Assembly (NCBI GenBank): GCA_040752695.1 | Contig: JBFMGO010000133.1 | Location: 1 to 14,807 of the forward strand | Reading direction: 5' to 3' | DNA from: a bacterium | GTDB taxonomy: Bacteria; SZUA-182; DTGQ01 | Length of the DNA: 14,807 nucleotides | In this document: piece by piece, positions 1,535-14,580 of the stretch | Numbering within the stretch: the stretch's first letter is position 1 | Layout: every line of letters starts with the position of its first letter | Made by a program: the position numbers and the translations under genes | Notes under the pieces: generated by a model | Told to the model about the DNA's origin: nothing | Seen by the model: only the letters and a program-made list of their open reading frames with translations | Database searches by the model: none

Positions 1535-2554
1535 CTATTTTTTAAAAATGGCCTTGGGGATCATGGCGTGAATTCCCTTGTTTCTATCCACAATCTGTGT
1601 CACTCTCAGGTCCACAACTAAGCTAGCCAAGTCATAGGCATCATCAGGGGTTAAGCCTTTGGTTTTTACTAAAAATTGGATTGCATCTCGCAAAGCGATT
1701 TTTACAGCTTCATTAAGATCTTTGTCGAAACCCATGGCAATCCAGTGAGTAGGGGTCTCGGCCATTGGCCGTTCGAGTTTCATGTCTTTTCGGACGACAA
1801 ATTGGAGTTCCACCACTTCCATAGCAGTCTCAAGGGCGGTAACGTTGACCTCACCGTCCCCTTGACCGGCATGGGCATCGCCCGTTGAAAAAAGGCCTCC
1901 TTTAACCTGGACCGGCAGATAAAGTGTGGTTCCCGCTACCAGTTCTTTGTTGTCCATATTTCCACCGAAATATTCCGGGATGCTGTTCTGCCGTTTCTCC
2001 CCTGGCTTTGGCGCAACCCCCATCGTTCCAAGGAAAGGGTTTAGAGGAACAACGATTCCCGGAGCGAACTTCGTTTCCATTTTCCCTAGGTCTAAATTGA
2101 ACGTTCTGAGCTGTCCATTTGGAAAATCCTCTGGTAATCCTCCAATCCCCATTCTCCCTGGCATATGATAATTCACAGCACAATGCATAGGGATCAATTT
2201 TTTAATTCTAACTTCCAAGACATCCCCGGGCTCGGCACCATTGACGAAGATGGGACCGGTGAGGGCAATGGGTGAAGCCTTCCGATCAATATACCCTTGC
2301 CTAAGGGGCACGAACTCATCATAAGTAATCCCGCATCTTAATCCACCCATCATCATCATCATCGTATTCAAAATAACGGTATCCTCGGAATCGACAGTCA
2401 ACACTGGAGGAATGGTGCTATCAAAATAACCGCTATGAACTGTTTGGGGTGATGCGACCAGGTTATGGATTTTTCCGCTTTGACTCATGGCTGCTCCTGA
2501 ACAAAACATGACAAGAGAAACGACAAGAGAAATAATCAAACAAATTGTTTTCAT
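1535..2554 (-). CDS. Acetamidase/formamidase (FmdA/AmdA) family protein with predicted Sec signal peptide
   Basis: LTGPIFVNGAEPGDVLEV, GGNMDNKEL, GDAHAGQGDGEV and ALET motifs; hydrophobic N-terminus MKTICLIISLVVSLVMFCSGAAMS; GGAGG RBS. Confidence 0.9.
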   Translation of the reverse strand: MKTICLIISLVVSLVMFCSGAAMSQSGKIHNLVASPQTVHSGYFDSTIPPVLTVDSEDTVILNTMMMMMGGLRCGITYDEFVPLRQGYIDRKASPIALTGPIFVNGAEPGDVLEVRIKKLIPMHCAVNYHMPGRMGIGGLPEDFPNGQLRTFNLDLGKMETKFAPGIVVPLNPFLGTMGVAPKPGEKRQNSIPEYFGGNMDNKELVAGTTLYLPVQVKGGLFSTGDAHAGQGDGEVNVTALETAMEVVELQFVVRKDMKLERPMAETPTHWIAMGFDKDLNEAVKIALRDAIQFLVKTKGLTPDDAYDLASLVVDLRVTQIVDRNKGIHAMIPKAIFKK

Positions 2555-2785
2555 AACCCCCTCCCTTTCCTAATTTATCATTGTTTATAAACCAATCTTT
2601 GATTTTGATCGACAAATACTCCTCCCTACTCAAAACAGAATGATTTTTCACCTCCTTAAGTGTTTAAGTTGAAACCCTTGGGTTAAGCATTCCGCAATGC
2701 TGATGGACCTTGAGCAAGAAGTAATAGACGTTATGGAATAATTTTGATAAAAAGAGCTTCTTATGAAATTCGCTCATTAATGGTC

Positions 2786-3121
2786 CTACGGCACTCGGAT
2801 TTGGCCGCCATCAACATCGATGATCGCGCCTTGCATGAAGCTTGCCCGATTGGATGCCAGAAACGCAGTAAAGGCGGCGATTTCCTCCGGGCGGCCGAAC
2901 CGTTCAATGCGTAAAGCCGCCAGCCGCTGGGCTGCGGCCTCTTCCAGGCTGACATGTCCCTTGCTGGCCATGCGCTCGAGTCCTCGCGTCAAGCGGTCTG
3001 TAGCGATATAGCCGGGATTGATTGCGTTCACCCGTACCCCATCGATCTCCGACATCGCCTTGGTGAAATTCAGCAGCGCCACATTGATTGATCCGCCGAT
3101 GGTGTAATCCGCTTTAAGCAT
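2786..3121 (-). pseudogene. C-terminal fragment of an SDR-family oxidoreductase
   Basis: GVRVNAINPGYIATDRL, RFGRPEEIA and FMQGAIIDVDGG are SDR C-terminal motifs; no N-terminal GxxxGxG; begins 8 nt after the racemase copy 2 stop. Confidence 0.85.
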
Positions 3122-3129
3122 CGGACCGA

Positions 3130-3975
3130 TCAGAACCCAAAATCCCGGAAAACCTTCTTCAGCATTTCCTTGGGAAAACCCTGATACTGGCTACTCTGTG
3201 CAGTAGTTCTACTCATTCCGATACTCTTTCGGAGATCAGCAAGCAACTCCGCCATCTTGAATGCAGCCGACGCGCCATCAACAACGCTGACGCCGGTCTT
3301 GGCCACCTCGGTGTAACCCGCCAGGGAAAGAGCCGGCCCCAAGGGAAAACCGGGAACCAGGATCGTATCCGCCCCGTCCTTGACGCATTCCAAAGCTGTT
3401 CTCTCAAAAAGTTCGATAAGTTTTTCTGGCTTGCCGCGATGAGCATCCATCATGTCGTTCCACACCCACCGATCAAACCATCGAATAGGCCTATCCTTGA
3501 TAAACCTGTCTTCAAATCCGAACATGCGAATGTGATGCTCCAGCATCCGCAAATACTGTTCCCGAATGGTTACCATGGCGAACTTCTCTCCGATGAAGCT
3601 GCCTACCGCCATTGAGGCCTCGCATGGACCGATGACTGGGATGTGCGCTACGGATCGTGCAATTTGAACGCCGTTGTCGCTGTGACACCCCAGCACAGCA
3701 GCATCATAACCTTCCTCCTCAGCCTTGATAATTCGATTAACAAGAGGCATCGACGTAACCGTGCTCAGATAGAGGTTCTGCAACGAACCAGAATACTTGT
3801 CCGGAAACCACTGGATCACCTTGGTGTCCGGTTTGGTCACTCTCTCCGCGGATTTCTGAATAATGTCCTCATAAAACCCACCCATCGGTCTGACCCCCCA
3901 AGCACCTGCGAGATCATCCGATGCACTATTACCTTCCCTCGTAAGTGGATGTACAATCAAAAGCTTCAATCCCAT
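3130..3975 (-). CDS. Asp/Glu/hydantoin racemase family protein, copy 2
   Basis: 281 aa, 270/281 identical to 171-1016; same motifs; AAGGAGG RBS. Confidence 0.85.
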   Translation of the reverse strand: MGLKLLIVHPLTREGNSASDDLAGAWGVRPMGGFYEDIIQKSAERVTKPDTKVIQWFPDKYSGSLQNLYLSTVTSMPLVNRIIKAEEEGYDAAVLGCHSDNGVQIARSVAHIPVIGPCEASMAVGSFIGEKFAMVTIREQYLRMLEHHIRMFGFEDRFIKDRPIRWFDRWVWNDMMDAHRGKPEKLIELFERTALECVKDGADTILVPGFPLGPALSLAGYTEVAKTGVSVVDGASAAFKMAELLADLRKSIGMSRTTAQSSQYQGFPKEMLKKVFRDFGF

Positions 3976-4061
3976 TTGATGCCTCCTTCTTATAATCGCC
4001 CGTTTTCATCTAATATTTTACACAGAAAGCAGCGCCCGACATCCATCCCAAACGCCCTTCC

Positions 4062-5372
4062 CTACTTATACATTAGCCCTGGAAGCCACAAAACAAGTTG
4101 CGGGAAGAAGTACAGCAGTATATAATTCAGTACCGATGCCGCAATGAACGGCATTACTCCTTTGATAATATCCGTCAGGCTTACATCGTCCTTCAGCACT
4201 CCCTTTACGACATAAAGGTTCACCGCTACGGGGGGCGTGATAACGGCCAACTCTGAAAGCCTAACAAACATAATACCAAACCAGATGGGGTCAAAGCCCA
4301 ATTTAATTATCGCTGGCACAAGTATCGGCACAGTAATCAACATTATAACTATCGGCTGCATAATCATGCCTAAAACAATTAGCAGCCCGGTAATTCCCAT
4401 AAAAATCAGATGGGGGGAAACTTCTAGAGAAGTTAAGAACTTGGTGAAATACGATACCGTCCCTCCGAGAACCATTGCCCGCGAAAAGAGAAATCCGCCG
4501 ATTAACGCGAGAAACATCATTCCTGTGATGATAGCGGTCTCCTTAAAACTGGTCTTGATAATATTCCAATTTACTCTCCGCATGCACAAAATGACGATAA
4601 AGCTTCCTGCAGCTCCAATGGCGCCTCCCTCCGAAGGCGTAAACAGACCGATAAAGATTCCGCCGATAGCGAACATAAAAATGAATCCTATAGGGATAAC
4701 ACTTCGGATGCTGAGGAGTTTCTCTCTTAAATCAGATTTCTTTTCAAGTGATGGAGCCAGTTTAGGGTTGCATTTGACCATAATATATACGGTGGCCATA
4801 TATATCAGACATTCCAATATGCCGGGACAGATGCCGCCAATCAGGAGTTTCCCGATCGATTGATCGGATAAGATACCGAACAGAACCAACAGGATACTGG
4901 GAGGTATCATCGCAGCTACGGTTCCGGCCGCCGCGATGCAGCCGGAGGCCAGTTTTTTATCATATCCATATCTGACCATCTCAGGAAAGGCTATCCTTGC
5001 AAAAAGTGCCGCTGTCGAAGCGGTTGAGCCACTAGCAGCACCAAAAGCGCCGCACCCAGCAATGGTGGCCATAGCCAGTCCACCTCGCAGCCGTCCAAGC
5101 CAGAGACGGCCCGCAGCGAAGGCGTCCTGACCGATTCTCGATTCAGCAGCAAATTGACCCATGAGGATAAAGAGAGGGATAACCACATATCCGTATGACG
5201 CGGTGGCATTGTAAGCAACGTTGGCAAGTTGTGCCATTAAGACTTGAGGCCCGGCAATAAGCAGAATTCCTAAAACTCCAGACAGTAGCAAAGCATAGCC
5301 GATATGTACCCCCCCTCCAATAAGCCCCAACATTACAATAAGAGATACGACTGAACTCATCCAATCTTGCAT
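4062..5372 (-). CDS. dctM: TRAP transporter large permease
   Basis: 436 aa polytopic; IPLFILMG, MIPPSI, FTPSE, GFDPIWFGI and ITPPVAVNLYV motifs. Confidence 0.95.
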   Translation of the reverse strand: MQDWMSSVVSLIVMLGLIGGGVHIGYALLLSGVLGILLIAGPQVLMAQLANVAYNATASYGYVVIPLFILMGQFAAESRIGQDAFAAGRLWLGRLRGGLAMATIAGCGAFGAASGSTASTAALFARIAFPEMVRYGYDKKLASGCIAAAGTVAAMIPPSILLVLFGILSDQSIGKLLIGGICPGILECLIYMATVYIMVKCNPKLAPSLEKKSDLREKLLSIRSVIPIGFIFMFAIGGIFIGLFTPSEGGAIGAAGSFIVILCMRRVNWNIIKTSFKETAIITGMMFLALIGGFLFSRAMVLGGTVSYFTKFLTSLEVSPHLIFMGITGLLIVLGMIMQPIVIMLITVPILVPAIIKLGFDPIWFGIMFVRLSELAVITPPVAVNLYVVKGVLKDDVSLTDIIKGVMPFIAASVLNYILLYFFPQLVLWLPGLMYK

Positions 5373-5390
5373 AATATTACCTGCCCTCCA

Positions 5391-5428
5391 TTGTTAATTC
5401 CCCGCAACTTGCTGCGGGGAATTAACAA
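5391..5428. repeat. Perfect 16-bp inverted repeat with 6-nt loop (REP-like) between dctQ and dctM
   Basis: ttgttaattccccgca-acttgc-tgcggggaattaacaa. Confidence 0.9.
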
Positions 5429-5471
5429 GTTAAAGGTATAACCATATCGGAATTACATCCCGCAGGAAGCC

Positions 5472-6026
5472 TCATATCTGGTCACTTGCATGCGAAATAT
5501 CCGGACCGCTCGTTTTGCTATAGGTACGATTTGTAGTAACAAGTTCCTTTATGGAACGGGCAAAGCGTTCAATAAGTCGAATCACAAAGATGGCTAATCC
5601 TACCACTATAGCTATCTTTGCCGTATATATAGGAAATGGTATGATACCTGTAGTGAACTCTCTTATCTGCCATGAATACAAGGCTGGACCAAAGGAAGCC
5701 ACCATCAGCAACCCACAGACAACTATCCCCAACAGGAAGGAGATGCAGTTTATCACCACTTGCAGTGTTTTACTGATATAGGGGAATATGAAGTCGACCC
5801 GCATATGTCTCTTCTCGGCCTCGCAAGGTGCAAGAGATAGAAAAATTACGACTACTAGAAGGATTTCGCCGCTCAGCTCGTAAGTCCCATAGAGTGGTTG
5901 ACGAAAAAGGAACCGACCCCAAACATCAATAAAGCTATATATTACCATTATAGAGATGCTTATCCCGCAAACCCACATAATTACCATCTCAACTCCGGAA
6001 ATTGCCTTTTCAATTTTTTCCAGCAT
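5472..6026 (-). CDS. dctQ: TRAP transporter small permease
   Basis: 184 aa, 4 hydrophobic segments; DVWGRFLF, YELS and HMRVD motifs; lies between dctP and dctM. Confidence 0.92.
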   Translation of the reverse strand: MLEKIEKAISGVEMVIMWVCGISISIMVIYSFIDVWGRFLFRQPLYGTYELSGEILLVVVIFLSLAPCEAEKRHMRVDFIFPYISKTLQVVINCISFLLGIVVCGLLMVASFGPALYSWQIREFTTGIIPFPIYTAKIAIVVGLAIFVIRLIERFARSIKELVTTNRTYSKTSGPDISHASDQI

Positions 6027-6086
6027 TTTTCCCTCCCAACCAATCGCAAAAAATACAACTCCATGTAAGAAACGCCCCGCTGTAAA

Positions 6087-7142
6087 TCACTGTGTTTTTC
6101 TATATTCAGCTTTCAATCGCGTTATAGCTGCCTTTACTGCCTTTACGTCATCCTGGATCTTCAGCTTAGCTGTCTCTTGGTCCCATACTTCTAAAGAGTC
6201 TTTTTGGAGTCGTTCATTCTCTGCTTGCGAGATGTAACTAAATTTAACCCCCTTATCTTTTAAAAATTTTTCATCTTCTGCATCTGTTTCTGAAATCAAC
6301 TGTTTGAGCATCTTAAGGTGATCAACCTGTAGATCCATGATGGTTTTCTGAAGATCAGGGGCTAAGCTGTTGAACAAATTCAAGTTCATTAGCGGTTGAG
6401 CGGCATAACATGCCGGATAAAAATCACCCTTCAGGTGGTACTTGGCAATTTCCCATAACCCTATTTTGTGTTGATCGTTAGGTGAAAGGGTACTTTCGAC
6501 CGCACCCTTCGCCATTGCCTCGTATACTTCTGATGATGGCAGCGCCAAAGGTACCATGCCAAGCTTGGCCACTCTTTTGGGCACCATCGAACCCCACACC
6601 CTTACCCGGAAGCTCTTTAAATCGTCCAACTTATTGATTGGCTTAGTGCAAACCACGCCATAAGGCGGAAGACCTCCGTAACTAAGTATTTTTACATTGT
6701 TTCTTTTGGATTCAGCCTTAATGGCAGGTACCTCTTCAACGACTCTTGGTATTAACCAGAAAAGTTCATCCAAATCCGCACACGGGTATTCAGCTATAAC
6801 TTGCAAAAGAGGATATTCAGAAGGATGGTATGTTATACTTGTTGTTCCAAGCTCAACGCCGCCACGCGCGACCAGCGGTAAAATTTCCTTGGCTCTTGCC
6901 AGTTCCTCGTTAAAGTAGTGCTTGATTTTAATTCTGCCACCAGTGCGCTTTTCAAGCTCGCTTGCCCACCATTTGATCCCCTGCATAAGCACACGCTGTT
7001 CGGGTTGATAATGTGCCATCCTCCATAATAGGGGTTTTTGCGCTTCTGATGATGCTGCGATGACAGGACTGCCCCCCCAAAAAAACAACACAGCCAATAA
7101 CAATAACACTAAAGCCTTTGCATCCAATTTTTTACTAAACAT
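6087..7142 (-). CDS. dctP: TRAP transporter substrate-binding protein
   Basis: Signal peptide; ELEKRTGGRIKI, KPINKLDDLKSFRVRV (conserved Arg), SEVYEAMAKGAVE and LWEIAKY motifs. Confidence 0.93.
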   Translation of the reverse strand: MFSKKLDAKALVLLLLAVLFFWGGSPVIAASSEAQKPLLWRMAHYQPEQRVLMQGIKWWASELEKRTGGRIKIKHYFNEELARAKEILPLVARGGVELGTTSITYHPSEYPLLQVIAEYPCADLDELFWLIPRVVEEVPAIKAESKRNNVKILSYGGLPPYGVVCTKPINKLDDLKSFRVRVWGSMVPKRVAKLGMVPLALPSSEVYEAMAKGAVESTLSPNDQHKIGLWEIAKYHLKGDFYPACYAAQPLMNLNLFNSLAPDLQKTIMDLQVDHLKMLKQLISETDAEDEKFLKDKGVKFSYISQAENERLQKDSLEVWDQETAKLKIQDDVKAVKAAITRLKAEYRKTQ

Positions 7143-7291
7143 TTTTCTTCCCTCCTCATTGGTTGATTTATCTATTGTGCCTCACATAGGCGCTATCAGA
7201 AGATCTTCAAAGAACTTTTTCAATGTCTTGCTATCGCTTCCTACGGAATATAAAAAAACACTGCGCAGTCGATCAATAAAATATCAATCCG

Positions 7292-7387
7292 TCAATTGCC
7301 TGTCACAATCGGATGGTTCCCCCTATCTCCCACCTTGTGACCATCCAGCCCCACCTTGGCCACCAATACCCTGACCATCTTTCCCAT
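7292..7387 (-). pseudogene. Truncated cobalamin-binding mutase small subunit (N-terminus only)
   Basis: Manual translation MGKMVRVLVAKVGLDGHKVGDRGNHPIVTGN*; matches the RVLVAKxGLDGHDRG consensus; GAGGGG RBS; directly after the mutase large subunit; below the ORF-track cutoff. Confidence 0.85.
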
Positions 7388-7426
7388 GCCTCTTGCCCCT
7401 CTATCTAAACAGCTTTCAACAGCTCT

Positions 7427-9106
7427 CTAAAACTGAGCAGCAACCCGATGTTCACCGTAAATCTCACGTAGTACCTGACAGATTTCACCTATTGTCGCAT
7501 ACACTCTCACCGCCTCTAGGATAGGCTCCACCATATTCTGTCCCCTCGAAGCCGCTTCCCGGACACCAGCTAACGTCTCCTTGACCTCTGCGCCGTCTCG
7601 TTCCGCCTTCAGAGTCCTCAGTCTCGCCAACTGACGTTCTTCCACCCGGTGATTCACCCGAAAAGCCCCTGGCGGAAAATTTTCCTCGCTCTTAAAAATG
7701 TTCACGCCCACAGAAACCCGTTCACCAGTTTCAAACTCCCGCTGCCGCTTGACCGCCCCCCGGGTAATAACCCCCTGACAATACCCTTTTTCAATTGCCG
7801 AGAGGGCTCCGCCTAGTTCCTCCACCTTTGCCATTTCCGCAAGGATGCCCCTCTCGATCTCCTTGGTCAGACTCTCCACATAGTATGACCCGCCCAGTGG
7901 GTCCACGGTCCTGGAAAATCCTAACTCATGGGCAATGATCTGAAGGGTACGAATGGACACCTTGCAGGCTTCATCATTAGGCGTCGCCATCGCTTCGTCA
8001 TAGGAGGCGTCATAAAGGAACTGAACCCCGCCCAGTGCATATGCCAGAGCGGCAAAGGCAATTCTGACAATATTGTTCTTCGGTTCCTTGAGAGTCTCTC
8101 CTCCATGGGAATAGGATGTAAATTTGAGCGCCATTGAATGGTGATTTTTTGCGTCAAAGCGATCCCGCATCAAACAGGCCCAGATCTTCCGAGCTGCCCG
8201 ACAGTTGGCAATCGTTATAAAAAAATCCTCCCGCTCATCCAGAAACATACCCAGCAAGGGAGCGATCTGCTCGATCTTGAGACCGCGCTGCAACAAATCA
8301 CCGATGTACACCAGCCCGTTTGATATCGCGAAGGCCGTGCCCTTGGTTGACCCTGATCCCGAGGCGTTGATATGGTTCGCACACAAGGTCATCGGATACC
8401 AGTGAGGGGCTTTCAAGGCGCAGTATTCGACGGTATCGCAGGCAAAATGAACCGCTCGATCTATCGGAAAAATGTAGGTCCCACGGGCAATATACTCCTT
8501 AATCGGATCGTTCTGCAGGTCGACCACATAATCCGCAGGCTTCAGACCCTGCTTCTCCCCCAAAGCAATGAGTAACGCTAACGCAATAGGACCAATTGAA
8601 TTTCCCATCATCCCGACCCGTTTGAAGCTGTTGAGGGGAAGTCCATCAAAAAGGATTTCCATGTCCCGGAGGGAATTGAGCGACACGCCGACGCGGCCGA
8701 TCTCCCCCTTAGACATGATATGATCGGAATCATAACCGATCTGGCTGGGCAGATCCGAGGCAATTTGCACCTCGTCAGCCCCCCAGGCAAGGATTTTTTT
8801 ATATCGTTCGTTGCTGTCCTCCGGTGTGCCAAAACCGGAATAAATCCGGACATGGAACGGCTCACCCCGGTTCATGCTGGGATTGATCCCCCGCGTATAT
8901 GGAAACTCCCCCGGAAAGCCAAGATCCTTTTCATAATCAAATCCCTGCTCACCCAAATCCAGCGGCGTATAAACCGGTTTCACCTCAATGCCTGCATCTG
9001 TTACGAACCGCTGCCGTCGTTCGGGCTTATCCTTAATGTAGTTTGCTCTGATCTCCTTCTCCCAGCGTTGCTGAGAAATAGACAGCGTCTTGCGAGATTC
9101 ACCCAC
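7427..9106 (-). CDS. Methylmalonyl-CoA mutase family large (substrate-binding) subunit, divergent; substrate unknown
   Basis: 559 aa; PGEFPYTRG, DLPSQIGYDSD, QNDPIKEYIARGTYIFP, NNIVR, YDEA, DPLGGSYYVESLT, VGVN and ATIGEI motifs; no fused B12 domain; GTG start with GGGGTG RBS. Confidence 0.93.
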   Translation of the reverse strand: MGESRKTLSISQQRWEKEIRANYIKDKPERRQRFVTDAGIEVKPVYTPLDLGEQGFDYEKDLGFPGEFPYTRGINPSMNRGEPFHVRIYSGFGTPEDSNERYKKILAWGADEVQIASDLPSQIGYDSDHIMSKGEIGRVGVSLNSLRDMEILFDGLPLNSFKRVGMMGNSIGPIALALLIALGEKQGLKPADYVVDLQNDPIKEYIARGTYIFPIDRAVHFACDTVEYCALKAPHWYPMTLCANHINASGSGSTKGTAFAISNGLVYIGDLLQRGLKIEQIAPLLGMFLDEREDFFITIANCRAARKIWACLMRDRFDAKNHHSMALKFTSYSHGGETLKEPKNNIVRIAFAALAYALGGVQFLYDASYDEAMATPNDEACKVSIRTLQIIAHELGFSRTVDPLGGSYYVESLTKEIERGILAEMAKVEELGGALSAIEKGYCQGVITRGAVKRQREFETGERVSVGVNIFKSEENFPPGAFRVNHRVEERQLARLRTLKAERDGAEVKETLAGVREAASRGQNMVEPILEAVRVYATIGEICQVLREIYGEHRVAAQF

Positions 9107-9190
9107 TCTTTCACCCCCTTTCCTAAATATCTCAACAATATTTTTCTATCCTGAATCTGGGATAATGCCCTTACATAATTTTATAGACCC

Positions 9191-9204
9191 GTTGAATATT
9201 CAAC
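9191..9204. promoter_or_regulatory. Perfect 14-bp palindrome upstream of the mutase, candidate operator
   Basis: GTTGAATATTCAAC is self-complementary and lies about 85 bp upstream of the mutase start. Confidence 0.45.
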
Positions 9205-9492
9205 AGATAGTGTCGCAAGTTAAGTTGGCATTTTCTACACTTTCCGAGTAGTCTCATTTTCGTAATTTGTTGGAGTGGTACTCATTACATCATGTAACCC
9301 TCAAGAGATTATCTTAAAAACGATCTGGCATCCTGCAATATATCCATAAAACGGTGATTTTTAATTCTTTCAGGGAACACGATATCGAGCCCCGAGATCT
9401 CACCGCCGTGCCCCTACCGGCGACACATGTCATGATCTAACAACCACAAATTCACCAAACTTTTTCTCAACAATGAGCTGACTGAGATATTT

Positions 9493-10220
9493 TCAAACCA
9501 TTACTCCTATTCCCTCTATCCAGGCAACAATTCCGCCACCAATAAAAGCTATTAAAAGACCTATAAATAATTCTTTACGACTGCCACCTGCCTGTATAAA
9601 ACCCATTGCATGAATCTTCATTCCTTCTCTATATAAAGACACGGCATTAACAGCAAATAACGTTAATTCTTTAATCTTTCGTGACAATGTGCCGTCTGTT
9701 AAAATCTTATTCCGCCAATTATAATATAATTCGACACCGCGGGGTATAGTCTCATCTAATAATCTAATCCAGTCTGGAACACTTCCCATGTTTTTACGAA
9801 AATAGCATAGAATATCTACACCAGTCATTTTAGTATCATTATTAACAAACGGTAATTTATTTCCATCTTGTTTATCCGATAGTATACCAGCCTCCAAGGC
9901 AGTTATTAGCGCTACTGGCCCTCTGGATATTAATACTGTAGATATAATATCTAATAGTTCAACTCTTGTTATTTGTTGTTCCTCGCATATATTAGCTACT
10001 TCGCGAAGTAAGCTACTACGCCCTTGCGATAGGCATATGCCAATCAAAACTAAATATTTCTCCTTATTCGGCAATACGCCATTATTCCAAATAGTGGCAA
10101 TAGGTCACTATAGCATATACCCATTTGAGGTAGTTGAACCTTAAAAGGCTTTATCCAAGCTGTATTCAGGCCAAAAATCTCACGCATAATGACTACTGAT
10201 TCAACATTTCTCTCTTTCAT
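9493..10220 (-). pseudogene. Tandem carboxymuconolactone-decarboxylase/AhpD-like domain protein, frameshifted near 10100
   Basis: ATG 10220 with GGAGG RBS reads MKERNVESVVIMREIFGLNTAWIKPFKVQLPQMGICYSDL, then a shifted frame continues ATIWNNGVLPNKEKYLV into the 193-aa ORF; span 728 nt (1 nt short); DGTLSRKIKEL and HAMGFIQAGGSRKEL are CMD-like. Confidence 0.75.
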
Positions 10221-10267
10221 TCAGATTACCCTCCGACTAAAATACTAACAGATATAAACTGTATTGG

Positions 10268-11242
10268 TTACCTATTAAGATAGTTTTTAAACATACTGAT
10301 GTATTCTGTCAGACCTGCCTTAATATCATAGAGAGGGTCATATCCTAACTGCTCCTTGGCTCTACCAATGTTGATCATAGCTCTATATTTTAATTCTTTT
10401 TCATTCCAGCCATTCATCTCCTCTCCAATTTCTATATTACAATTAGGGATCTGTTCCTTAATTAGTGGCAATAGCATCGCCGGTGTCACTAGCTCCTTCC
10501 CGGTAGCAACGAGAAAGATACTGTCTTTAGGAGGCTCCCTAAACAAGGCTTTTATAACAGCCTGAGTTACATCGAGAACATGAGTATAGTCTCTTGGGAA
10601 ATTAAGGCCGGTTTCAATACGAGTGGACAAATTTTTTAAGGAGTTCTCAACCATCGGTTTTATATACATTGGATACTGCATACCAAAACCGTAAACGGCT
10701 GATGGTCGTAATGCAATAAACTTAAACCCAAAAGCCGAAGCGTAGCTCAAACCAAACGCTTCACTTGCCAACTTTGAGGCGCTATACGGTCCATTCCCCG
10801 GCCCTTCACTAGCTGAAATCACAGGATGGTTTTCATCTATTGGCTCGTATTTCTTGCTAGTAAAGATGCCATTCGTGCTTAAATAAATAATTCGCTCTAA
10901 TCCTTCTATTCGGGCAGCCTCTAATACATTCAATGTGCCACCAAAGTTTATTCGATATGCCATCATAGGGTTCTGTAATAGATATGGTGGATCAACTATG
11001 GATGCTGCGTGTACAATCATCTGAATGCGATTCTCTTTGACTACCCTGATAACAGCTGATAAATCCTCAATAGTACCACGACAGAATTTAACATCAGGCA
11101 ATTCTTTCCGTAGTAACCAAGCCTGTTCCTGGATTGGCGGTCTCACATCAAATGCTACAACTTCACAGCCCTTTTTGACCAATTCTCGAACAACATACGA
11201 TCCTATAAATCCGCTACTCCCCGTCACCATTATCGACGCCAT
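10268..11242 (-). CDS. NAD-dependent epimerase/dehydratase (extended SDR)
   Basis: VTGSSGFIG, HAAS, YSASK (YxxxK), LRPSAVYG and RDYTHVLD; ATG 11242 is better spaced from GGAGG than GTG 11245. Confidence 0.92.
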   Translation of the reverse strand: MASIMVTGSSGFIGSYVVRELVKKGCEVVAFDVRPPIQEQAWLLRKELPDVKFCRGTIEDLSAVIRVVKENRIQMIVHAASIVDPPYLLQNPMMAYRINFGGTLNVLEAARIEGLERIIYLSTNGIFTSKKYEPIDENHPVISASEGPGNGPYSASKLASEAFGLSYASAFGFKFIALRPSAVYGFGMQYPMYIKPMVENSLKNLSTRIETGLNFPRDYTHVLDVTQAVIKALFREPPKDSIFLVATGKELVTPAMLLPLIKEQIPNCNIEIGEEMNGWNEKELKYRAMINIGRAKEQLGYDPLYDIKAGLTEYISMFKNYLNR

Positions 11243-11275
11243 CACTTCCTCCCTTATGTTTCAAGCCAGAGGATA

Positions 11276-11493
11276 TTAATCATTCTGTGCAGTTTTTGAT
11301 GTCCCCATGTAAACTTGAATGATTTCATCTGTTTTTGAAAGCTCTGCCTTCGTGCCCTCCATCCTAAGATGCCCCCCATCAAGGAGGTAAGCATAATCAG
11401 CCAGTTGTATACCAAGATGTGCATTTTGCTCCACCATGATTATTGAAACATTTTTTCTTTGTTGACTTTATGGACGACACCTGCAACATTTAT
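11276..11493 (-). pseudogene. C-terminal remnant of a LivF-type ABC transporter ATPase
   Basis: Manual translation INVAGVVHKVNKEK/NVSIIMVEQNAHLGIQLADYAYLLDGGHLRMEGTKAELSKTDEIIQVYMGTSKTAQND*; VEQN switch motif and terminal YxG; frameshift in the homopolymer at 11451-11456; 5' boundary approximate. Confidence 0.85.
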
Positions 11494-11699
11494 TAATTGA
11501 ATATAACTTCTTCTCGAAACTTACGTTTAAAACTGCGGGCTTAGTGTTCGCTCCCGCTGAAGCTACTCCGACATGCCTTACTTATCCAGTTTTTCAATCG
11601 TCTTTTACGAAACCCGGAATCGACCTCAATAGCGGAACGCTCTATGTTGCCTGCCGCGGATTTCAGCAATTAATTAGATCAATCAGAGATTTCTTAATG

Positions 11700-12455
11700 C
11701 TATAAAGAACTATCCTTAAATATCTCAAAGGCCGTTTTATCATGTGCCGGCAACACTTCGGCGCCGTACCTCTCTATTTTAACAAAGGAATCAAAACAGT
11801 CCTGTAAATCTGTATGCAGGCCACAAGGCAGTCTATTTTGCCAGTTCTCGATAGTATTAATCAAATCACCGGCTATCAAAAATCTTCCTTGCAACGCATC
11901 AATTAATACTCCTTGAGACCCTGGCGAGTGACCCGGCAGTAACACTGTCGATATACCGTCATCAATGACGACATCTCCGTCAATGATTTCCATCTGATTG
12001 TAATACATTAGGAAAAAAGGGATTCGCTCCTTGATATTTGTTTCATAGATTTTCGCATCAAGCGGGTTTGGATTAACCGCATATCTGATTTCTTTACTTT
12101 GCACATACACCTTGGCATTCGGCAGCTTATTCACACCATAGGCATGGTCCCAATGCAGATGGGTCAAAATAACAACCCCAATTTCCTCCGGGCTGATGCA
12201 GTATTTTTTTAAGGCTGGTAGCAAATACTGCTCATCCCGCTCTCGGATGCTGGGCACATGATACTTTCTGCTCCATGCCTCATCTTCGGCTGGTCCGGTA
12301 TCAACCAGAATCTTTCTACCATCGTTTGTATTAATTAGCAGCCATACGATAGAAACATTGTCCACCTTCTCCCCTGCACGATAATCAGCTTTCATTATAT
12401 TGCTACATCTAGCCACTTCAAGTATTCCCATATCCAGAGGTATAATCTTCCACAT
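11700..12455 (-). CDS. Metallo-beta-lactamase-fold hydrolase, N-acyl-homoserine-lactonase-like family
   Basis: LVDTG, THLHWDH (HxHxDH), PGHSPG, AGD and PAHD metal-binding motifs. Confidence 0.9.
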   Translation of the reverse strand: MWKIIPLDMGILEVARCSNIMKADYRAGEKVDNVSIVWLLINTNDGRKILVDTGPAEDEAWSRKYHVPSIRERDEQYLLPALKKYCISPEEIGVVILTHLHWDHAYGVNKLPNAKVYVQSKEIRYAVNPNPLDAKIYETNIKERIPFFLMYYNQMEIIDGDVVIDDGISTVLLPGHSPGSQGVLIDALQGRFLIAGDLINTIENWQNRLPCGLHTDLQDCFDSFVKIERYGAEVLPAHDKTAFEIFKDSSL

Positions 12456-12509
12456 AGACTTAACCGTCCTTTCTGTGCTAACAAATTAATTTTTACCTAA
12501 TAACATGGG

Positions 12510-13568
12510 TCATGGATAGATGAGCACCTTCATTCCCACGCAGTCTTCTACTGTTTTAAATGCTTCTTCTATTCGATCTATTGGGAATTTATGCGTAATT
12601 GCCGCTTCAAATCTGGCCTTATTAACATCATCCAACGATATCAATAATTTGATTAATTCTCTCCACAGCTTGGGCGGTAGTACATGTGTACCCGACATTC
12701 TTATTTCATTCCTTACCAGCGTTATAAAATCAGCTGTCAGCGGCTTGGAGGCTATGCCAATCAATACAATAATCGCTCTTTTCTTGGCTAACGATATGGC
12801 GTTTGACAGGCCGCCCCCGGAACCCGATATTTCCAAAATTACATCTGCGCCCACCCCATTACTAACCTCACTGGTATGGTCCAATAAATCCTCAGTGTTA
12901 GTAAAGATATTGATACCAGGTATGTTGTTCTTGAATATCTTTAACCTTGGGGCATCCTGGGGTAAGCCTGAGATGCTTATATCAACCGCACCTGCCAGAT
13001 AAGCAAACATAGAAGCGTAATAACCGATAGCCCCCGGACCGATTATCACAACATTCTTTCCAAGCAATGAGCCTGCTTTAAACAGAGCATTATAAGCAAC
13101 CGACATCGGTTCAATAGTAGCACCCAGAGCTACCGAAAAATCTTTGGGCAAAACAAAGCATTGATTTTTGTCAATCAAAACATGCTTCGCCATAGCACCT
13201 GGGTATTCCAGGCCAATGGGTTTTCTGTTCAGACATATTTCTCTGCTACCATTATGGCAATAATAACAATTGCCGCAACCCCCTGCTGGAATTACCACTA
13301 TACGATCCCCCACTGAAATTTCATCGCTTGTTCCGTCCATTTCTTCGATAGTACCCGTAAATTCATGCCCAAGAATTATTGGCAACCGATCTCCCAATCG
13401 CTTCTGATAGCCAACTTCCCAATTGTAAATATGAATATCCGTTCCGCAGATACCTACAGCATCAACTCGTGCAACAGCATGACCAGTTTTTAGCTTTGGC
13501 TTTTCCACATCTTTGACGGCAATCTCTTTTGGTATAGGATCAGTTTTTAATACAGCAAGCATTGTCAT
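12510..13568 (-). CDS. Zn-dependent medium-chain dehydrogenase (threonine/sorbitol dehydrogenase-like)
   Basis: GICGTDIH, GHEFTG, CGNCYYC...C structural Zn site, IEP and GPGAIG. Confidence 0.92.
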   Translation of the reverse strand: MTMLAVLKTDPIPKEIAVKDVEKPKLKTGHAVARVDAVGICGTDIHIYNWEVGYQKRLGDRLPIILGHEFTGTIEEMDGTSDEISVGDRIVVIPAGGCGNCYYCHNGSREICLNRKPIGLEYPGAMAKHVLIDKNQCFVLPKDFSVALGATIEPMSVAYNALFKAGSLLGKNVVIIGPGAIGYYASMFAYLAGAVDISISGLPQDAPRLKIFKNNIPGINIFTNTEDLLDHTSEVSNGVGADVILEISGSGGGLSNAISLAKKRAIIVLIGIASKPLTADFITLVRNEIRMSGTHVLPPKLWRELIKLLISLDDVNKARFEAAITHKFPIDRIEEAFKTVEDCVGMKVLIYP

Positions 13569-13612
13569 TTCCTCTTCGTCAATAGGTGGACACCAAACAT
13601 TTCATGTTTTTA

Positions 13613-14425
13613 GGACTTATCTCAAAAGATAAATGGACATAACATTCTGATTATGTAATATAAACAGAATGGAACTGACAAACGCGCAATGGAATCGAGT
13701 AGAGTCCATAGTGCACTCAATAAAACTGCTAAAACATCCACAGAGTAGTAGACTACGCGATTCGTATTAAATTTAACCGGAATCCCATGAGAGGATTTGC
13801 TTATGCGGTATCCGATACACCAGACATGCCGCAGGAGCTTCCGGCAATGGGTTAGATTGGAAGTTTTGAGGCGTATAGGCCAAGAGCTGGCACAGGATCT
13901 ATATAAACCAAATAGAATCAATATTAGCGATGTTTTCATTGACAGAACTTTTGTCCCAGCAAAAGAAGGGGCTTTGCTGTCGGTAAAACAAAGCACGGCA
14001 TAATCACCGAGGCCATGAGCATCGCCGACACTGCTGACTCCTTCGTCTCTACTAACATTAAGAGCGCTACACTTTATGAGATAAAGTTGGTGGAGACGAC
14101 CATTAATAATGGTTTTACCCGCGATGTTTCTGATCGTCTTATTTGTGGTAAGGCATACGACAGTAATGGAGTTGATAAGTGCCTTTTGGACGAAGGCGAC
14201 ATTGAAGTGGTTTCCCCGCACCGACATAAGCGAGGCAAACAATACACTCAAGACAGAAGAAAGCTTCGATGGTATAAGCACTGATGGTAGGTCTAACACC
14301 TGTTTGCCTGGGTTCAAAACTTCAGACGCTTGGATGTTCGTTACGAATACCATACTGAAAACTTTCTCGGTTTGTTGCAGCTCGGTTTTACAATCATGCT
14401 ACTTCGATTATTTTGAGATGGCTTC
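13613..14425 (+). mobile_element. Degenerate IS5-family insertion sequence (two-frame transposase type), about 0.8 kb
   Basis: Ends taggacttatctcaaaa (13611-13627) and ttttgagatggcttcta (14411-14427) match 13/17 as inverted repeats including a flanking TA on each side. Confidence 0.85.
13760..14416 (+). pseudogene. IS5-family DDE transposase pseudogene
   Basis: QTCRRSFRQW and FIDRTFVPAK, then after a frame change at aaaagaagggg (13961-13971) VGKTK, GKAYDS, SPHR and [17 protein letters not shown]; several in-frame stops; 5' boundary approximate. Confidence 0.88.
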
Positions 14426-14580
14426 TAATCTTTTTAATACATGAGCTATCATTCAAAACAGCAGGGAACAAGAAGGCGCATTCGGCCTGTTTGCTTTACC
14501 TGTTGAAAAAAATCGATTTGCTTGTAATAATCTATATTCTAAATTCGTCAGCGTGTTGTCTTTTTATCGTCCATCCTTCC

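Follow-up and report, generated by a model that had tools for sequence, protein, structure and literature searches.

A clade of putative B12-dependent mutases with an invariant carboxylate site and an unconserved coenzyme A tunnel in the methylmalonyl-CoA mutase fold

The 14,807 nt contig JBFMGO010000133.1 (assembly GCA_040752695.1), hereafter the window, carries at positions 7427–9106, on the reverse strand, a gene for the large subunit of an uncharacterized type of B12-dependent mutase. Its family, fold, residue pattern, clade and gene neighbors are established below, and its sequence indicates that the product is a member of the methylmalonyl-coenzyme A (CoA) mutase (MCM)-like superfamily that should not be filed as MCM, isobutyryl-CoA mutase (ICM), 2-hydroxyisobutyryl-CoA mutase (HCM), ethylmalonyl-CoA mutase (ECM) or the indoleacetate-pathway mutase IaaG. 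Together with its small subunit, it is predicted to form an adenosylcobalamin radical mutase. The clade is set apart in that an invariant carboxylate site of the MCM type occurs together with a tunnel released from conservation and a thiolase partner, which points to a specific, testable reaction. To our knowledge, all characterized enzymes of the MCM fold thread CoA through the barrel, and the clade offers a test of whether such a barrel can dispense with CoA and move a ketone group.

The deduced product has 559 aa and no internal stop, and its GTG start codon is directly preceded by a purine-rich ribosome binding site. It matched Pfam PF01642 (519.7 bits) and TIGR00641 (513 bits, above the cut-off), with all full-length MCM and IcmF models below their cut-offs. 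An AlphaFold2 model built from a 120-row alignment (predicted local distance difference test, pLDDT, 83.9; predicted template modeling score, pTM, 0.90; weaker blocks at residues 331–340 and 361–380) was closest in Foldseek to the HCM structure 4R3U (template modeling score, TM, 0.92; 35% identity), HcmA being also the top solved relative by sequence, and MCM structures scored 0.82–0.88 by query length. Pfam and Foldseek hence agree on a barrel large subunit of the MCM fold within the PF01642 superfamily; the ESM Atlas returned generic MCM clusters only.

Residues were mapped by alignment to chain A of the Propionibacterium shermanii MCM (1REQ); query numbers run on, so that Q197, R207, H244 and E370 are Q198, R208, H245 and E371 in the query, and we assume a +1 offset between this alignment and the usual P. 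shermanii numbering. The query keeps R87, Y89, Q197, R207, H244, F287 and E370, and differs from 1REQ by Y75N, T77S, R82E, T85H, G112E, S114Q, F117S, S162R, S164G, T166M, T195D, N236Y, S241C, R283L, S285G, R326K, H328T, S362F and N366A. This mapping bears out the barrel-strand differences from MCM listed in the original prediction, which had been made from the letters of the window, and all motifs quoted there are present in the gene. Beyond that list, we found Y243N, E247A, Q330Y, S332H and a DER motif at positions 290–292.

In an alignment of the query with 119 homologs (the best 120 of the listed clusters; 57–86% identity), Y89, E112, Q198, R208, C242, N244, H245, D290, E291, R292, Y332, H334, A367 and E371 are invariant, and L284 (119 sequences), D196 (118), R163 (115) and R87 (115) are nearly so. 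The carboxylate site of MCM (Y89, Q197 and R207), including the Tyr/Arg pair that had been predicted to bind the carboxylate, is thus retained in 120/120 proteins, as are the equivalents of His244 and Glu370, which we take to be the catalytic and the ribose-binding residue, respectively. At the B12 face, Tyr243 and Glu247 are present in 16/16 canonical references, whereas the clade has Asn (120/120) and Ala (115/120) at these positions. Because the 119 homologs share Y89, Q197, R207, H244 and E370 as well as a new invariant set (Y243N, Q330Y, S332H and DER), the substitutions in the barrel are not drift, a possibility that the original prediction had left to a comparison of homologs.

Conservation was compared between 13 clade representatives (mean identity 52%) and 16 canonical mutases (49%), the latter given as 11 MCM-type, 2 HcmA, 2 ICM-like and 2 ECM-like, with somewhat uncertain labels (L022 is counted as MCM-type, and the ICM-like and ECM-like labels are by motif). 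At 15 inward-facing core positions of the barrel, which make up the tunnel, mean pairwise conservation was 0.37 in the clade and 0.87 in the canonical mutases (0.37 and 0.78 for 20 tunnel plus entry positions), whereas at 17 deep positions it was 0.91 and 0.70, respectively. The clade scored 0.74 at 115 other positions conserved in canonical mutases, and none of 20,000 random draws was as low as the tunnel set. The summed side-chain volume at the 15 positions was 1978–2195 Å3 in 10 gap-free clade representatives (2127 Å3 in the query; 1929–2289 Å3 across the 119 homologs) versus 1700–1757 Å3 in canonical mutases, which amounts to about 250–460 Å3 of added side chain. The query keeps only 1 of the 15 canonical residues, and it lacks the small Ser/Thr tunnel and, through R82E and R283L, phosphate-binding Arg residues of acyl-CoA mutases; R283 is Leu in 13/13 representatives, and R82, R87 and R326 differ between subgroups. 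The predicted loss of Arg residues therefore holds for R82 and R283, but R87 is kept, R326 is replaced by Lys and R163 is new. The HCM, ICM-like, ECM-like and iaa-type mutases, on the other hand, show an altered acyl pocket and a retained tunnel.

Rewriting of the barrel is not confined to this clade: among 94 scored cluster representatives (from 115 of 480–620 aa, in an alignment that is rough near strand 1), 24 keep at most 3 of the 15 tunnel residues and 17 reach the volume of the clade. The clade is less surprising because such rewriting is common among environmental MCM homologs. A further mutase with a rewritten barrel lies beside a cytochrome P450 gene and an EthD-domain gene in a Sphingobium plasmid (L200, positions 2947–6681), and its host is cultured.

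A tree of 85 sequences, including 26 of the 119 homologs and 21 of 150 cluster representatives but not the iaa-type L202 and L203, was obtained with an IQ-TREE quick search and midpoint rooting, with support from the SH-like approximate likelihood ratio test (SH-aLRT) only and no bootstrap. The query fell in a group of 49 sequences (SH-aLRT 99) with no canonical reference inside, separate from the MCM, ICM-like, HCM and ECM-like references, in agreement with the prediction that it is not a characterized mutase; the core clade comprises 44 sequences (support 88) and is drawn open. This separate clade, the invariant residue set and the tunnel comparison together support the prediction of a new-substrate mutase over one of drift. 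Our literature search found no description of the clade, of a CoA-free enzyme of the MCM fold or of a 4-oxo-acid mutase; Jost 2015, which reportedly lists uncharacterized mutase groups, may already show the clade.

Records of clade members are labeled Deltaproteobacteria, Syntrophaceae, Clostridia, Peptococcaceae, Limnochordales, Rhodospirillaceae, Hyphomicrobiaceae and Chloroflexota. Their spread is patchy, with close homologs in 2 of the 301 genomes of the class of G041, that of the nearest relative (up to four candidates scored per genome). At E 1e-200 the distribution counts were 1/201, 5/17 and 12/401, several of the matches being canonical or sister proteins. The best of 428 records in a plasmid search was 43.6% identical and no clade member was seen among them. 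The original Smithella proposal for propionate dismutation was reportedly a branched-to-linear keto-acid shift; a link of the clade to this process was considered and is not supported by the occurrence in 2/301 genomes. PMC13685792 describes the enzymes of this dismutation as unidentified. Hosts of the clade have 3–26 MCM-family matches, and four genomes (G043, G044, G045 and G025) have 14–26 each, many of them only 33–47% identical to the query, which constitutes a large reservoir of paralogs. A sister clade (L194, positions 8168–15938, and L195, positions 2449–9990) has E112, R163 and D196 in common with the query, and its operon contains genes for DUF1302 and DUF1329 proteins, MeaB, mutase, small subunit, a short-chain dehydrogenase/reductase (SDR), a lactonase, a second SDR and a CoA ligase. 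Additionally, a second uncharacterized mutase family without the His244 equivalent is found beside the clade mutase in L073 (12495–14318) and L193 (1635–3461), and these two second mutases group together with a support of 100.

We examined the neighbors of the mutase gene in 21 clade loci (L002–L012, L015, L059, L063, L073, L091–L095 and L193). In 13 loci, a gene for a CoA ligase or transferase is found no more than about 4.5 kb away from it, and in nine a thiolase gene within about 4 kb (the ligase and thiolase of L059 were assigned by likeness to L011); of the eight loci without a nearby CoA-activating gene, five end early upstream at contig ends, and L006, L063 and L073 have long flanks. 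The original prediction had noted the absence of CoA ligase and transferase genes from the window and had seen in this a sign of a non-CoA substrate. The observation is true, but the window spans an entire contig whose end cuts the small-subunit gene, and the argument fails in view of the relatives: these carry CoA ligases, CoA transferases and thiolases beside the mutase, and CoA is therefore used in the pathway, though possibly not in the mutase step. The proposal of possible CoA independence loses this argument but gains sequence support from the unconserved, bulkier tunnel over an invariant deep site.

The class III transferases of L002, L003, L007 and L012 are 52–75% identical to each other, across phyla, and the classical thiolases show 40–45% identity between Bacillota and Alphaproteobacteria. 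The catalytic Cys/His/Cys motifs are intact in five of six classical thiolases inspected, the sixth being cut by a contig end, and L004 and L093 have the DUF35-partnered thiolase type. A MeaB gene is present at L004, L011, L012, L059, L094 and L095. Among the open reading frames (ORFs) scanned at the 21 loci, none within about 7 kb encoded an acyl-CoA dehydrogenase, enoyl-CoA hydratase, hydroxyacyl-CoA dehydrogenase, epimerase or carboxyltransferase (47 of 72 leftover ORFs were scanned, the rest being mostly overlapping or antisense frames, with five scanned earlier); a MaoC-like gene lies 8 kb from the mutase in L006. A thiolase without β-oxidation genes fits a product that is already a β-keto acid. 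Enzymes that open lactones or lactams also recur, in the window, in L063, in the sister-clade loci L194 and L195 and, as caprolactamase-like pairs, in L011 and L095. In L002 (8486–12904), the genes for both subunits are duplicated in tandem and the first large-subunit copy is frameshifted, which may be an assembly error.

The explanation that we tentatively prefer is that the mutase shifts the ketone acyl group of a free 4-oxo acid and that the resulting 2-methyl-3-oxo acid is then activated with CoA and cleaved; we infer here the substrate, the order of the steps and the independence from CoA. The substrate would be R-CO-CH2-CH2-COO-, i.e., succinyl-CoA with CoA-S exchanged for a carbon group, where R is left general and levulinate (R = methyl) is merely the simplest example. 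Y89, Q198 and R208 would grip the free carboxylate as in MCM, and H245 would polarize the ketone at the position of the MCM thioester carbonyl; a hydrogen would be abstracted next to the carboxylate, and a 1,2 migration of R-CO would yield the 2-methyl-3-oxo acid, with the former pantetheine tunnel forming a closed, lineage-specific pocket for R. In the next steps, the β-keto acid would be activated by the neighboring CoA ligase or transferase and split by the thiolase into R-CO-CoA and propionyl-CoA, with activation and thiolysis pulling the reaction forward. A free 4-oxo acid as substrate would account for the MCM-like carboxylate site, the conserved His, the filled and variable tunnel, and a gene set that combines the mutase with CoA activation and a thiolase but not with β-oxidation. 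MCM turns over carba(dethia)-CoA ketone analogs and radical acyl shifts on ketones are facile, although neither point was found in our literature search. We hold a little more loosely the wider proposal, that a CoA-free ketone-acyl mutase of the MCM fold, with CoA activation and a thiolase, makes up a compact, undescribed route for γ-keto acids, lactones or lactams. Glutamate and 2-methyleneglutarate mutases likewise shift carbon skeletons on free acids but are of a different sequence family (glutamate mutase compared with the mutase model: TM 0.42–0.43, 13–14% identity). The table of class I mutases in a 2010 review has no ketone-acyl migrating group (PMC6257451).

Several points weigh against a free 4-oxo acid as the substrate. 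Conservation also drops in the clade at residues that point outward from the tunnel strands (0.39, versus 0.66 in canonical mutases), and therefore part of the tunnel signal is general repacking of the barrel; the tunnel set depends on our choice of MCM contacts, the summed volume is a crude measure and a barrel can open, and canonical conservation is inflated by the 11 MCM-type sequences among the 16 references. Phosphates could be bound by R87 and K328, which the query retains, and by the new R163. In L002 and L003, its two closest relatives, the locus has a CoA transferase and no thiolase, and the operon found in Alphaproteobacteria (small subunit, ligase, thiolase, MeaB and large subunit) is the hcm layout plus a thiolase; in the hcm operon, the ligase makes the substrate of the mutase. 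The 13 and nine loci counted above are not all independent, since L015 and L059 belong to one genome and the thiolases of L011 and L059 are 96% identical, and the lactonase and dehydrogenase of the window may be a later insertion. It is chiefly because of the hcm-like layout, with a ligase that acts first, that an acyl-CoA mutase with a new substrate, in which a ligase or transferase precedes the mutase and CoA occupies a rebuilt or outward-shifted channel, is a serious, if doubtful, alternative; the candidates are a shift of a 4-oxoacyl-CoA to a 2-methyl-3-oxoacyl-CoA or a longer dicarboxylate half-ester. The CoA-activating genes near the mutase in 13/21 loci, the similarity of the class III transferases across phyla, the presence of R87, R163 and K328, and the use of CoA esters by every characterized member of the fold all agree with it. 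Nonetheless, a common CoA ligand should keep the channel conserved within the clade, and this channel is unconserved, while the HCM, ICM-like, ECM-like and iaa-type mutases alter the acyl pocket yet keep the tunnel; furthermore, the invariant Y89 and R208 would not be required for an acyl-CoA in which a ketone replaces the free carboxylate. HcmAB itself (4R3U; plasmid operon of Methylibium petroleiphilum PM1, L201), the closest match in sequence and fold, shares the split large and small subunits and an operon with ligase and MeaB, but HcmA has Ile and Gln at the positions of Y89 and R207, a canonical tunnel and a place in another part of the tree, and the query is by these marks no HCM. The same tunnel evidence would serve a CoA-independent enzyme with other radical chemistry on a free carboxylate, such as a vinyl-, aryl-, imine- or amide-type migration (cf. 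2-methyleneglutarate and glutamate mutases) or an elimination. Y243N, E247A, Q330Y, S332H and DER reveal that the B12-proximal site has been rebuilt too, and genes downstream in the window encode enzymes of the Asp/Glu/hydantoin racemase and acetamidase families; we nevertheless find this chemistry unlikely, given that H245 is invariant and that the recurring thiolase without β-oxidation genes would be left unexplained.

That the gene encodes IaaG, a normal MCM, or a copy that is decaying or has no catalytic activity is very improbable and already largely refuted by sequence comparisons. Databases name the homologs “methylmalonyl-CoA mutase”, the query is the sole MCM-family gene of its assembly (G000), and Y89, Q197, R207, H244 and E370 are common to it and to MCMs of the same fold (P. 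shermanii 1REQ, human 2XIJ, Escherichia coli ScpA, Rhizobium BhbA and split MCMs). Yet 14 of the 15 inward barrel residues differ from MCM, as do the residues at Y243N, E247A, Q330Y, S332H and DER; the clade is separate in the tree, its hosts have several MCM-family matches, and its genes neighbor ligases, transferases and thiolases instead of the epimerase or carboxyltransferase of MCM. Codon differences from the two nearest relatives show an excess of synonymous over non-synonymous changes (184 versus 78, and 209 versus 80), at odds with decay. The signature of isobutyryl-CoA and pivalyl-CoA mutases, Phe at position 89 and Gln at 207, is found in the ICM-like L041 and L106, whereas the query has Tyr and Arg; likewise, the query gene is split, without the fused B12 domain of ECM, and does not group with L079 and L080, labeled ECM-like by motif only.

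IaaGH, the phenylsuccinyl-CoA/benzylmalonyl-CoA mutase of anaerobic indoleacetate degradation, is described as an acyl-CoA mutase (PMC8360864); it resembles the clade in its non-standard substrate, its cluster with a hydantoinase-family enzyme, thiolase and CoA activation, and the conserved Y89 and R207. As proxies for it, rather than the characterized IaaG, we used L202 and L203, recognized by their gene content within the class to which G934 belongs, whose clusters contain a hydantoinase pair, an acyl-CoA dehydrogenase, a hydroxyacyl-CoA dehydrogenase, a thiolase with DUF35 and the mutase. These mutases are 42% identical to the query, with another signature: they keep Y243, E247 and 9 of the 15 tunnel residues (1899 Å3 versus 2127 Å3 in the query) and alter the deep pocket (F287N and Q330G), and the acyl-CoA dehydrogenase beside them was not found at the clade loci. 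On these grounds the identity with IaaG was rejected, and a presumed mutase of bulky acyl-CoAs shows a pattern opposite to that of the clade. The iaa-type clusters L202 (3041–17122; G974) and L203 (G951) also include a gene of the tungsten/molybdenum aldehyde oxidoreductase family, and hydantoinase and mutase matches are co-located in G1030 and G1031 as well.

If the preferred explanation, a mutase of free 4-oxo acids, is true, it would add a new reaction to the family and a new migrating group to the B12 class I mutases, as well as a previously unseen way to process levulinate and other 4-oxo acids, and the lactones and lactams that yield them; it would also suggest that many tunnel-filled MCM paralogs of uncultured anaerobes act on free acids. 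Whatever the substrate, metabolic models that count the clade genes as methylmalonyl-CoA mutase, following their database label, are probably wrong.

The features of the window are collected in Table 1; no Rfam match was found across it, and a search for sequencing runs gave none. Over 68 aa, the small-subunit stub shares 87% identity with its counterpart in L002, which lies beside an 85% identical mutase. Because the contig end cuts this gene, its DxHxxG motif is off the contig; the motif is present in 7/7 small subunits checked at relative loci. The transporter probably imports an organic acid, and TRAP components also adjoin clade mutases in L012 and L093.

Table 1. Genes of the window and the evidence for their assignment.
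Feature	Coordinates	Strand	Evidence and remarks
B12-binding small subunit, C-terminal stub cut by the contig end	14581–14807	-	TIGR00640, 66 bits, over cut-off
IS5-family transposase remnant, between small subunit and low-GC block	13797–14284	+	NF033580, E 4.5e-5 and 1.4e-4, below cut-off
Zn-dependent alcohol dehydrogenase	12510–13568	-	ADH_N, ADH_zinc_N
AttM/AiiA-like metallo-lactonase	11700–12455	-	Lactamase_B; AttM model, 87 bits, far below cut-off of 390
Extended SDR (NAD-dependent epimerase/dehydratase family)	10268–11245	-	PF01370
Carboxymuconolactone decarboxylase (CMD)-like protein, AT-rich	9493–10074	-	No Pfam hit; ESM Atlas feature score 0.93 to CMD clusters; guanine-cytosine (GC) content 0.36
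MCM-family B12 mutase large (barrel) subunit, uncharacterized clade, signature CxNH / FxDER / YxHG	7427–9106	-	PF01642, TIGR00641, model, Foldseek, tree
Tripartite ATP-independent periplasmic (TRAP) transporter (dctP, 6087–7142; dctQ, 5472–6026; dctM, 4062–5372)	4062–7142	-	Pfam; directly downstream of mutase

Between the genes for the two subunits, which are adjacent in most relatives, lies a block of lower GC content (9150–14500; 0.36–0.43 versus 0.52) that comprises the CMD-like, SDR, lactonase and dehydrogenase genes and the IS5 remnant. The lactonase, 31% identical to one near the clade mutase in L063, is a candidate for a lactone-opening step, and the Zn-dependent dehydrogenase for that from a 4-hydroxy to a 4-oxo acid; the link of both to the mutase is unproven, and weak because they lie in this block together with the IS5 remnant. 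An SDR 25% identical to that of the window is encoded two genes upstream of the mutase in L003.

In the assembly (G000; 96.6% complete), searches found no MeaB, no class III CoA transferase, no full-length thiolase (seven partial matches only) and no adenosyltransferase of the PduO type, the one type that the search covered. None of five genomes of the same genus or family had any MCM-family match, and the contig ranks 9 of 161 in G000 by tetranucleotide distance; it is probably an island or mis-binned. At the other end of the window, an acetamidase-family gene and a truncated SDR gene (2786–3121) lie between two genes of the Asp/Glu/hydantoin racemase family (171–1016 and 3130–3975, reverse strand); the identity of the two racemase-family genes, 94% in DNA and 96% in protein, indicates a recent duplication.

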